Of a stretch of 64,000 bases of DNA, positions 21,068 through 22,817 are shown piece after piece (the stretch's first letter is position 1; every line of letters starts with the position of its first letter). Location of the stretch: sequence record MW822011. One strand, 5' to 3'. The notes under the pieces were generated by a model. The model was not told where the DNA came from, did not search any database, and worked only from the letters and a program-made list of their open reading frames with translations. The translations under genes and the position numbers were made by a program. The stretch is from Shigella phage TB004.

Positions 21068-21403
21068 ATGTCTGAAGTACAACAGCTACCAATTCGTGCT
21101 GTCGGTGAATATGTTATTTTAGTTTCTGAACCTGCACAAGCCGGTGATGAAGAAGTTACAGAATCAGGACTTATTATCGGTAAACGTGTCCAAGGTGAAG
21201 TTCCTGAACTGTGTGTAGTTCACTCTGTTGGTCCTGATGTTCCTGAAGGTTTCTGTGAAGTTGGTGATTTGACTTCTCTTCCAGTTGGTCAAATTCGAAA
21301 CGTTCCGCATCCTTTTGTAGCTCTGGGTCTTAAGCAGCCAAAAGAAATTAAACAAAAATTCGTTACCTGTCACTATAAAGCTATTCCGTGTCTTTATAAG
21401 TGA
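21068..21403 (+). CDS. 31: Co-chaperonin gp31 (GroES analogue needed for capsid protein folding)
   Basis: 111 aa, [51 protein letters not shown]...; matches T4 gp31. Confidence 0.93.
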
Positions 21404-21550
21404 TATAAATAATAATATGAATTGGGTGTCGGAATAATAAGTTAACCGAACGATTCTACGTGGTAGTCTACAACTGAGAGATCTGTCGAAAGAAGATGAA
21501 ATTCAGAAGAACGTGACTACCGAGTTTTAATCTCTAACGAGAATTTTTAA

Positions 21551-21799
21551 ATGATTAAACAATTACAACACGCTCTTGAACTGCAACGAAACGCATGGAA
21601 TAATGGTCACGAAAACTATGGCGCATCTATTGATGTTGAAGCCGAAGCTCTTGAAATCCTGCGTTATTTCAAACATCTGAATCCTGCTCAAACTGCATTA
21701 GCTGCTGAGCTTCAGGAAAAAGATGAACTTAAGTATGCTAAGCCTCTGGCTTCTGCTGCACGAAAAGCAGTTCGTCACTTTGTGGTAACACTGAAATAA
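21551..21799 (+). CDS. rIII: rIII lysis-inhibition accessory protein
   Basis: 82 aa, MIKQLQHALELQRNAWNNGHENYGASIDVEAEALEILRYF...; size and sequence match T4 rIII. Confidence 0.88.
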   Translation: MIKQLQHALELQRNAWNNGHENYGASIDVEAEALEILRYFKHLNPAQTALAAELQEKDELKYAKPLASAARKAVRHFVVTLK

Positions 21800-22197
21800 T
21801 TTATTGGAGATTCACTGCCTTAGTGTGAGCTAAAATCGAGGAGCCATCGAACTGTCTGATTAATGATTTGCGAATCATTATAGTTTTAAGACCCCGGCAG
21901 TTTTATGGTGTACCTCTTGAATGTTATTCTTATAGCGGCAAGTGCATGCTACCCCGAGGTGATGGCCAATCGGGAGTACGCCTCAAGGCCTATATATCCA
22001 TCAGTATATATCTTATCCTCGAGAAATCGAACCCGGAACCTTTAAGCTAACGGTGTGCAACAGATAAGAGCTATAAGGTATGATGACGGGTTTATGGTTA
22101 TCCTGGTCGTTAAATATTCAAAAACCTATGTTCCCCTTGAGGGCTTGCGCAGGCAATGCCAATAAGTCCTGCATTTTCATTTAAAAGAGAATTTATA

Positions 22198-22374
22198 ATG
22201 GCAAAACAAGCTAAAGCAAAGAAAGCAGTTGAAAAGAAAGTTGGTGATTCTAAACGCGCTGGTTACAAGCGTGGGTCGAACTCTCGTATCAATCAAACTG
22301 TTGAGAAGATCATGCGCCGAGCACGTGCGGTTCTTCGAGATGATGCTTCTCGTTTTGGTAAGCAGAAAGCATAA
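22198..22374 (+). CDS. Hypothetical small basic protein (58 aa)
   Basis: MAKQAKAKKAVEKKVGDSKRAGYKRGSNSRINQTVEKIMRRARAVLRDDASRFGKQKA; followed by a strong terminator. Confidence 0.55.
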   Translation: MAKQAKAKKAVEKKVGDSKRAGYKRGSNSRINQTVEKIMRRARAVLRDDASRFGKQKA

Positions 22375-22378
22375 GTTG

Positions 22379-22404
22379 AGGACTCCTTCGGGAGTCCTTT
22401 TTTA
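22379..22404 (+). terminator. Rho-independent terminator (GGACTCC-ttcg-GGAGTCC plus T tract)
   Basis: 7-bp GC-rich stem, UUCG loop, then TTTTTTATTTT. Confidence 0.8.
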
Positions 22405-22427
22405 TTTTCCAAAGATTGCATAAAGTT

Positions 22428-22456
22428 GTTTACAGTATAGTTCATTTGTGATAGTA
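22428..22456 (+). promoter_or_regulatory. Early promoter-like element
   Basis: GTTTAC, 17-nt spacer, -10-like ATAGTAT, upstream of ORF 22485. Confidence 0.5.
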
Positions 22457-22484
22457 TTATCTTACACAAACAAAGGAGAATAAA

Positions 22485-22817
22485 ATGAAAACGATTAATC
22501 TGAACGCTACAGTTAAAACTAAATGCTTCAATGGTAAATATGATGAAACTATGTGGTTCTTAATGGCAGTTGAAGGTGATATTATTGAAGTAGAAACAAC
22601 AGAAGGTATGGGAACAGATTTCACCTTTACAATTCAAGTTCATAATTTCTTTACTGGTTGGATTTATGAATTGAATACAGTAATCGTTGGAAAAATTGAA
22701 CAAAATGAATTAGGTGAATGGTATTATGTTACAGCTCGCCAACGTGCAGAACGCTTAATTGAGAAGATGAAAAAAGTTGGTAAACTTGACATGCAGCACT
22801 GGAAAGTAGTAAAATAA
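22485..22817 (+). CDS. Hypothetical protein (110 aa)
   Basis: ORF with AAGGAGAA SD. Confidence 0.6.
   Translation: MKTINLNATVKTKCFNGKYDETMWFLMAVEGDIIEVETTEGMGTDFTFTIQVHNFFTGWIYELNTVIVGKIEQNELGEWYYVTARQRAERLIEKMKKVGKLDMQHWKVVK

Follow-up and report, generated by a model that had tools for sequence, protein, structure and literature searches.

Here we report that the 398-nucleotide (nt) spacer between rIII and the 30.9 homolog of Shigella phage TB004 (record MW822011; the whole 64,000-nt stretch analysed is referred to as the window) almost certainly specifies a chain of structured RNA modules. Within it lies a 149-nt RNA, hereafter the core, that recurs in phages of several enterobacterial genera and matches no Rfam family, and directly after rIII lies a short unit, M1, that judging by its alignments is very probably homologous to the ToxI repeats of plasmids. 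We tentatively read the spacer as a co-transcribed array of trans-acting accessory or anti-defence RNAs. The window is a T4-like (Tequatrovirus) genome, shown on the strand that carries the early and middle genes, and a query of ~1 kb around the spacer is 99% identical to many coliphages and Shigella phages. The core-carrying Tequatroviruses Shigella phage SF2-1 and Escherichia phage U115 both show 99% identity in this region.

21800-22197, + strand, rIII-30.9 spacer, 398 nt
21929-22077, + strand, core RNA, 149 nt, absent from T4 (covariance model and RNAalifold; no Rfam match)

The original prediction, made from the sequence of the window, pointed to an interval of about 400 bp after rIII that lacks a credible open reading frame (ORF), and proposed a structured noncoding RNA as one of its explanations. 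Both points hold: the exact spacer runs from the end of rIII at 21799 to the ATG at 22198, and no frame stays open across its homologs. None of its ORFs reaches a Pfam or PHROG family above threshold, the one sub-threshold hit listed being BA14K (16.4 bits at a cut-off of 26) for a 36-aa ORF. The structured RNA itself is strongly supported by covariation in the core, a pseudoknot, a long hairpin and the ToxI-like unit. The claim that the interval is GC-rich stands locally, since the 53% GC of 21891-21990 is equalled or beaten by 0.08% of the 100-nt windows in the 64 kb, but the spacer as a whole is only modestly enriched (41.5% against 36.0% for the window, which places it among the highest 6.5% of 398-nt windows). 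That no tRNA cloverleaf could be built was likewise borne out, as ARAGORN found 0 tRNA or tmRNA genes over the entire window. What had been missed was the modular organisation, the likeness to ToxI, and the fact that T4 shares most of the spacer.

A blastn search had been proposed to decide between a segment shared with T4 and a lineage-specific one, and the answer is divided. The spacer of T4 measures 244 nt; aligned to it, the flanks of the window's spacer are ~98% identical and common to both phages, and one insertion of ~153 nt, at about 21926-22078, is absent from T4. Its ends form an 8-bp inverted repeat (CTTATAGC/GCTATAAG). Foreign DNA, another of the earlier suggestions, is therefore right in a limited sense, as the core is inserted relative to T4 and one module resembles plasmid ToxI repeats. 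A sensitive blastn search with the spacer reached 990 phage records, in 179 of which at least 80% was covered. The central 135 nt of the core (21936-22070) are 86-96% identical in phages of Klebsiella, Edwardsiella (Kanagawavirus), Serratia and Enterobacter (Karamvirus) in which no part of the flanks can be aligned; in these genera too, the core sits between rIII and 30.9 on the gene strand. Over the same comparisons rIII protein identity is only 66-76%, which puts the core under far stronger constraint than the genes beside it. The covariance model recognised 20 of 44 IMG/VR rIII loci, 14 metagenome contigs and further GenBank phages (83-193 bits), with every match co-oriented with rIII. The core is found, as one copy per genome, in about 400 sequenced phages of Escherichia, Klebsiella, Enterobacter, Yersinia, Serratia, Edwardsiella and other enterobacteria.

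Beyond these phages the core was not recovered. The covariance model matched neither T4 nor the Aeh1-like rIII loci (L067-L069), and a two-anchor degenerate pattern scan of IMG/VR returned only T4-like contigs that had previously been collected. Blastn against 5,426 E. coli genomes and against plasmids revealed no host copy of the core. Scanning 185,579 species genomes for its 18-mers yielded three matches, all attributed to chance and in unrelated metagenome-assembled genomes, and the model recognised none of them. The Rfam search that had been suggested as a check was run with Rfam 15 (4,227 families) and matched nothing in 21800-22197 at E<=10, nor, at E<=1, anything in spacers from six other lineages. 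T4-like phages belong to the most thoroughly studied viruses. The core, for which the comparative support is unusually strong, matches none of these 4,227 families. The core sequence was not found in the literature that we searched, and a description beyond that literature is possible. Uzan and Miller (2010; PMC3014915) observed that neither a riboswitch nor a trans-acting RNA had been characterised in T4, and the main text of a large survey of structured RNAs in phages (PMC10690425) leaves T4-like phages unmentioned. The Minerva preprint deals with an unrelated reverse transcriptase-associated RNA array. Neither the core nor the cassette-like organisation of folded RNAs appears to have a described counterpart in Rfam or the searched literature.

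The first structural model was obtained with RNAalifold from a MAFFT alignment of 15 copies of the core, from which the covariance model was also built, and covariation statistics were calculated over 34 distinct core sequences. The model consists of seven helices:

21929-36/22070-77, + strand, P1, closing helix, identical to the repeat at the ends of the insert
21937-39/21988-90, + strand, P1b, encloses P2
21948-81, + strand, P2 hairpin, within P1b
21991-22010, + strand, P3 hairpin
22011-17/22063-69, + strand, P4, encloses P4a and P5
22019-30, + strand, P4a, with a GAAA loop here and usually a GNRA loop
22031-35/22051-56, + strand, P5, within P4

Compensatory changes were seen at 16 of 43 pairs among the 15 copies; over the 34 sequences, 99.2% of cells are paired and both sides change at 29 of the 43 pairs. 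The covariation score of 0.311 compares with 0.122 after shuffling (reached in 0 of 500) and with at most 0.046 when partners are slid by 1-3 columns, and an independent MAFFT/RNAalifold run gave the same helices. Divergent copies alter even those helices that do not vary elsewhere: Yersinia phage fHe-Yen9-01 has GGU/ACC in P1b instead of GGC/GCC, and A-U instead of G-C at one pair of P5, another P5 pair of which becomes U-A in Slopekvirus CPRSB. P1, P1b, P3 and P4 abut without linker bases, which makes a four-way junction. The invariant positions of the core are mostly unpaired, about 45 bases being both, in stretches that include AAGNGCAUG, GGA(A/C)CC...AGCUAA and GUGCAACA. The invariant bases GCAU (J1b/2) and GUGC (J5/4) may form a 4-bp contact. 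A pseudoknot between GGCC in the P2 loop and GGCC of P1b was abandoned, since L053, L055, JC221 and CPRSB do not conserve the distal part of P2.

The core has many G-U pairs and hardly any A-C pairs, which identifies the sense strand as the one that folds. An RNA from the minus strand was rejected on the same G-U pairs, and on reverse-strand model matches that do not exceed 5 bits. A coding sequence was rejected as well, the longest open stretch in every frame being ~26-27 codons in several homologs; the homologs are 157-169 nt long and differ by non-multiples of three. Folding energies alone are unremarkable (z-scores of -1.7, -0.9, -1.35 and +0.5), and the case for structure therefore rests on the comparative evidence. 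The alignment to relatives that had been called for supplies it, with structure conserved through compensatory changes.

M1 is the one module for which a relative outside phages could be recognised. ToxI, with a repeat of 36 nt, is the RNA antitoxin of the type III toxin-antitoxin (abortive-infection) system ToxIN; it binds and neutralises ToxN, which processes it at AAAU.

21803-21836, + strand, M1 (TTGGAGATTCACTGCCTTAGTGTGAGCTAAAATC), ToxI-like unit (pseudo-ToxI), directly after the rIII stop codon

Its central duplex pairs UCAC (21812-21815) with GUGA (21825-21828), AAAT motifs flank it at 21794-97 and 21832-35, and GAGGAGCC, just 3' of it, resembles the start of a second ToxI unit. The M1 of the window, which is of the T4 type, has diverged and carries a one-base indel near its 3' part; it is identical to a ToxI unit of E. 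coli plasmid pU90-1 at 29 of 38 positions (76%), a level that 0 of 2000 shuffles reached. The M1 of a close relative (L039), which has no Rfam match, finds 75 plasmids at 87-90% identity with several sites per record, and that of Klebsiella phages finds 65 plasmids at 91-94%. The plasmid sites matched by these relatives are tandem arrays directly upstream of annotated toxin genes of the ToxN/AbiQ family, of which two were fetched:

L093:1497-1972, ToxI array of P. atrosepticum plasmid pPA21A, 13 copies of 37 nt
L094:1503-1646, ToxI array of E. coli IncX4 plasmid pU90-1, 4 copies of 36 nt

The gene tables of both plasmids label the ToxN genes only, and the arrays carry no feature. In the M1 duplex 93.8% of cells are paired, and pairing is kept via compensatory changes: A-U in the window stands for G-C in ToxI, and U-A in Klebsiella phages for the C-G of others. 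This agrees with the pseudo-ToxI of Pectobacterium phage PhiTE, in which a compensatory U9C/A25G pair is found in a ToxI duplex made of U9-A25, G10-C24 and C11-G23 (PMC3475682). M1 is the sole ToxI-like site in the window. A ToxI locus would hold a tandem array of at least two units upstream of toxN or abiQ; what the window has is one unit with a partial second start, between rIII and 30.9, and no ToxN nearby. Because no toxN adjoins it, M1 would mimic the antitoxin without belonging to a toxin-antitoxin locus. The same M1 is present in T4, and this look-alike goes unmentioned in the literature on T4 versus toxIN that we searched. Taken alone, M1 would be another phage pseudo-ToxI, and thus of a known kind. 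By eye, M1 and module D (see below) also bear a weak resemblance to CRISPR I-F and I-E repeats.

The remainder of the spacer is made up of further modules:

21837-21916, + strand, M2, long irregular hairpin (GAGG...CCUC, GCCAU...AUGGU, GAACUGUC...GGCAGUUU) enclosing the 8-bp hairpin at 21861-21880; also in T4
22085-22126, + strand, module C, H-type pseudoknot with S1 22085-90/22102-08 and S2 GGUU 22096-99/AACC 22123-26; also in T4
22130-22147, + strand, module D, motif GU(U/A)CCCYUNRRGGRCUUG with a short G-C hairpin, once in the window
22149-22172, + strand, module E, hairpin GCAGG...CCUGC with conserved loop CAAUGCCAAUAAGU, read from the spacers; the least certain module
22173-22193, + strand, hairpin AUUUUC-AUUUAAAA-GAGAAU from minimum-energy folds, pairing the purine tract of 30.9

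The perfect 8-bp hairpin that had been noticed in the interval, TAATGATT-tgcg-AATCATTA, lies exactly at 21861-21880, within M2. RNAalifold on seven close relatives gives M2 25 pairs, five of them with compensatory changes, such as ACUGUC/GGCAGU versus AUUGUC/GACAAU and UAAUGAUU/AAUCAUUA versus UAUCGAUU/AAUCGGUA. The start of M2 (UCGA-GGAGCCA-UCGA-AC, 21836-21851) resembles P4a of the core (UCGA-GAAA-UCGA-AC, 22018-22032), which may reflect an internal duplication or coincidence, and the loop of this hairpin holds a GGAG (RegB-type) motif. The stems of module C are joined by a conserved A-rich linker, CGUUAAAUAUUCAAAA, and S2 occurs in at least six compensatory states: GGUU/AACC (window and T4), GUAGU/ACUAC, UUGUGAG/CUCACAA, GUUGGUU/AACCAAC, UUAGUAGUU/AACUACUAA and CAAGGUU/AAUCUUG. 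As expected of an H-type pseudoknot, both stems show compensatory changes, at 4 of 6 pairs in S1 and 5 of 7 in S2, and the covariation score is 0.353 against 0.161 for shuffled alignments (reached in 0 of 500) and at most 0.196 for slid controls, all from a crude ungapped alignment. Motif D is the most universal feature of rIII-30.9 spacers: of 92 fetched loci, 57 contain a single copy of it, T4 and loci that lack the core among them, and where in the spacer it stands varies by lineage.

Module E and the last hairpin rest on weaker evidence than M2, C and D. Module E is not in the minimum-energy fold, and its stem reads GCAGG/CCUGC in the window versus AACUGG/CCAGUU in L042 and L058, with the loop kept. 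The purine tract paired by the 22173-22193 hairpin is likely the Shine-Dalgarno sequence of 30.9, and from the equivalent UUCUCC...GGAAGA of other lineages we infer that such pairing extends to them. Blastn found no match in plasmids or E. coli genomes for the core, C, M2, D, E or the alternative modules described below, and mimicry of other plasmid-borne antitoxin arrays by the modules other than M1 was rejected on this ground.

A second genomic context separates the core from rIII and 30.9. Yersinia phage JC221 (87.5 bits) and the Slopekvirus Klebsiella phage CPRSB (82.6 bits) carry a divergent core after uvsY/uvsY.-1/.-2, in a noncoding tail closed by a terminator that faces uvsW, an arrangement seen in 20 phage records. 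In JC221 an M1-like hairpin, the D motif and a 'ACGUAAAAC' element resembling module C come after the core; in CPRSB the D motif lies 3' of the core. The modules thus move as a group, and the core does not serve any one gene as its leader. The JC221 tail (MN508817, L086:1250-1935) is ~650 nt long and holds, besides the core, the M1/ToxI-like hairpin and the D motif, further conserved-looking segments; that of CPRSB (OM971649, L092:1986-2335) follows the uvsY operon and ends at the terminator facing uvsW. GenBank places small 'hypothetical protein' ORFs over both tails.

The core site itself is variable. At the junction GAATGT|TATGATG, in otherwise near-identical spacers, three alleles were found: the empty site of T4, a module of ~45-50 nt in T6-type phages, and the core of the window.

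Core site in T6-type L028, L030, L034-L036, L039, L041 and L043, and also in L033, L045 and L053: alternative module ACUAUCAYGCGUCAGAAAARGGUUAUCUGUSUAAGYCKUGGUKG

By eye this alternative module looks structured too, its inner stem (CAGA/UCUG versus CAGC/GCUG) and closing stem appearing to covary; it has no Rfam or plasmid match. Module order also varies among genera, with C upstream of the core in Klebsiella phages and downstream in the window, and with D directly after the rIII stop codon in some lineages.

How, then, could such a spacer function? On the reading that we tentatively favour, it would be transcribed on the sense strand within the rIII-30.9 mRNA and fold into a chain of independent modules; these have been shuffled, gained and lost between T4-like lineages. 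M1 would be a one-unit ToxI mimic, most likely acting, now or once, as a decoy for ToxN-family endoribonucleases. The seven helices and linker-free junction of the core would present its ~45 invariant unpaired bases, presumably as a binding surface for a specific partner, and the core would act in trans, whether excised from the mRNA or still part of it, as a decoy or sponge that captures a host or defence factor. We regard it as a trans accessory RNA because it occupies two unrelated positions, is dispensable, and shares its site with another module or nothing; we think that it is not a cis-regulator of 30.9. A more far-reaching version, to which we give less credence and which we consider rather unlikely, would make the core the first of a novel class of accessory RNAs in phages, being a structured decoy or inhibitor of a host immunity or RNA-metabolism protein, or else a new aptamer or ribozyme, and would make the spacer and the Slopekvirus uvsY tail an 'RNA anti-defence island', with folded RNA cassettes, a ToxI mimic among them, swapped between T4-like phages much like protein anti-defence genes. 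If the modules are counter-defence RNAs, RNA mimicry would extend from one rv5-like phage to the main phage-therapy family and a new kind of accessory locus would be defined.

Several points weigh against this array of trans-acting RNAs. T4, M1 notwithstanding, needed experimental evolution to overcome E. coli toxIN (PMC9391042), and the protein TifA is the means by which T4-like phages counter toxIN (PMC9391042; PMC10853763); a ToxI-like sequence, rIII and 30.9 go unmentioned in both papers. A study of T4-family phages escaping ToxIN likewise leaves rIII unmentioned and ascribes no pseudo-ToxI to T4-like phages. The 1.5 repeats of PhiTE are inactive, and it is by expanding them that mutants escape (PMC3475682); the M1 of the window is a single diverged unit, and caution is therefore due in assuming that one unit is active. 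M1 alone resembles a defence RNA, the other modules having no blastn match in plasmids and E. coli genomes, and because of this the anti-defence role proposed for the core is guilt by association. In most genera the core adjoins 30.9, whose ribosome-binding site is sequestered, which fits a role in cis. Furthermore, folding energies are not exceptional, and it is from the layout of the operon that we infer expression of the spacer RNA.

The main rival is a cis-acting leader or operator, in which the modules would bind a protein (for instance in autoregulation by gp30.9) or a ligand, and would regulate either how 30.9 is translated or how the rIII-30.9 mRNA decays. Wherever it occurs in Tevenvirinae, the core is placed in the sense orientation between rIII and 30.9. 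A hairpin takes up the ribosome-binding site of 30.9, junction nucleotides that do not vary are characteristic of aptamers and operators, and gp30.9 is a small, basic protein of unknown function. However, a riboswitch would be expected at a constant position upstream of the gene it regulates, and such a position was not found: the distance from core to 30.9 and the modules between them vary, the core stands on either side of the pseudoknot, and in JC221 and Slopekvirus it precedes other modules and a terminator rather than a gene. T4, moreover, retains 30.9 and its hairpin without the core, and no Rfam riboswitch matched. We consider this explanation unlikely, although it is the strongest of the rivals.

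Two further explanations appear improbable to us, each to a similar degree. The first is a self-cleaving ribozyme, or a module processed by RNases, that would separate the fates of rIII and 30.9 or define a 3' end. Small ribozymes are common in phage intergenic regions, and the core, with invariant unpaired nucleotides around a multi-helix junction, does lie between cistrons or in 3' tails; yet no ribozyme family of Rfam 15 matched at E<=10, a cleavage-site signature was not found, and at ~149 nt with seven helices the core exceeds the small self-cleaving classes. The second is generic structure, the tight folding of a long untranslated stretch guarding against Rho-dependent termination and exonucleases with no specific partner involved. 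The modules do stand near the 3' end of a transcription unit, before its last small gene and terminator or directly before a terminator, and the whole spacer is paired in comparative models. This would, however, leave unexplained the ~45 unpaired bases that stay invariant while the helices change sequence across genera, as well as the 86-96% identity of the core and the similarity to ToxI, and T4 manages without the core.

A remnant of a mobile element at the DNA level (resembling a miniature inverted-repeat transposable element), or a decayed intron, both of which the original prediction had also entertained, or else a decayed gene, is essentially excluded, since the features that suggest it (inserted sequence that T4 lacks, bounded by an 8-bp inverted repeat, presence or absence among near-identical flanks, and small ORFs annotated over the insert in some GenBank records) are met by a 'terminal repeat' that is the covarying helix P1 and changes in every lineage yet stays complementary, by G-U pairs that make the signal strand-specific, by one copy per genome with no target-site duplication at the junction between T4 and the window, and, for a gene, by the lack of any conserved frame, lengths that differ by non-multiples of three and no Pfam or PHROG family above threshold.

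The array of accessory RNAs can further be set against systems that are known. RNA mimicry is known as a phage counter-defence, as in solitary-repeat RNA anti-CRISPRs and phage tRNAs that replace cleaved host tRNAs. Like these, the modules are small noncoding accessory cargo of patchy distribution, seen in their presence, absence and swapping; unlike them, the core has no sequence resemblance to any host, plasmid or defence RNA searched, and a mimicry role for it is therefore hypothetical. The closest parallel for M1 is ToxI and the pseudo-ToxI of PhiTE (Blower et al. 2012, PMC3475682): the ~36-nt unit aligns with ToxI repeats, keeps the duplex and the AAAU flanks, and, as in PhiTE, is present as about 1 to 1.5 units rather than an array. 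In contrast to ToxI, it has no adjoining ToxN and no tandem array, and the other modules are not ToxI-like; in contrast to PhiTE, its carriers are T4-like Straboviridae and not rv5-like phages.

Structured RNAs of T4-type phages offer other comparisons. The rnaC and rnaD RNAs of T4 (species 1 and 2) are stable structured RNAs of ~120-140 nt with unknown function (PMC3014915), and in being small, structured and of unknown role they resemble the core; they differ in lying in the tRNA-cluster locus and look dissimilar by eye, and the core covariance model found no match over their region (L027 2409-2672). The T-even gene 32 mRNA contains a pseudoknot that is an autoregulatory operator (PMC3014915), and module C is likewise an H-type pseudoknot in a T4-type mRNA, followed or joined by A/U-rich sequence. 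Module C differs from it in sequence and locus, its distance to a start codon is not fixed, in Klebsiella phages it stands upstream of the core and far from 30.9, and it has no known binding protein. In overall architecture the core is similar to the SAM-I riboswitch and the hairpin ribozyme, which combine a closing helix and a four-way junction with conserved junction-proximal loops and variable helices. Unlike these, it has no Rfam match at the thresholds tried and no consistent downstream gene, and a ligand or cleavage site was not identified.

The genes and signals around the spacer are as follows:

21068-21403, gp31, upstream gene
21404-21411, + strand, late-promoter motif TATAAATA, upstream of rIII
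21551-21799, + strand, rIII, 82 aa (phrog_1457, E=5e-44), co-oriented with the RNA modules
22198-22374, + strand, 30.9 homolog, 58 aa, a very basic protein, ATG at 22198 (phrog_1427, E=2e-31)
22378-22409, + strand, intrinsic terminator closing the transcription unit (promoter/terminator scan)
22429-22457, early-type promoter just past the 30.9 terminator (promoter scan)
22485-22817, 30.8, downstream gene

The 30.9 homolog matched no Pfam family. The gap between gene 31 and rIII spans 147 nt (21404-21550), with TATAAATA, which we take from established knowledge of T4 to be the late-promoter consensus, at its start; this site is the likely source of sense transcripts across the spacer. The promoter and terminator scans gave nothing credible within 21800-22197, the nearest promoter-like match being a weak one (9 of 12 positions) at 21772-21800, across the rIII stop codon. 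Because a late-promoter motif precedes rIII, a terminator follows 30.9 and no credible signal lies between, the spacer RNA would be made as part of the rIII-30.9 mRNA. In Karamvirus the core starts as close as 10 nt past the rIII stop codon. A sub-threshold Rfam match to Atu_C8, a Rhizobiales small RNA, at 22330-22413 (31 bits against a gathering score of 50) was rejected, as the matched stretch is the intrinsic terminator after 30.9.

On the practical side, many GenBank records hold spurious 'hypothetical protein' genes over these RNAs; in phages U115 and Roth17, for instance, ORFs of 41-60 aa are annotated on top of the modules. In several phage records a gene around rIII and 30.9 bears the label '1,4-alpha-glucan (glycogen) branching enzyme, GH-13-type', apparently through automatic mis-annotation of a tiny ORF.

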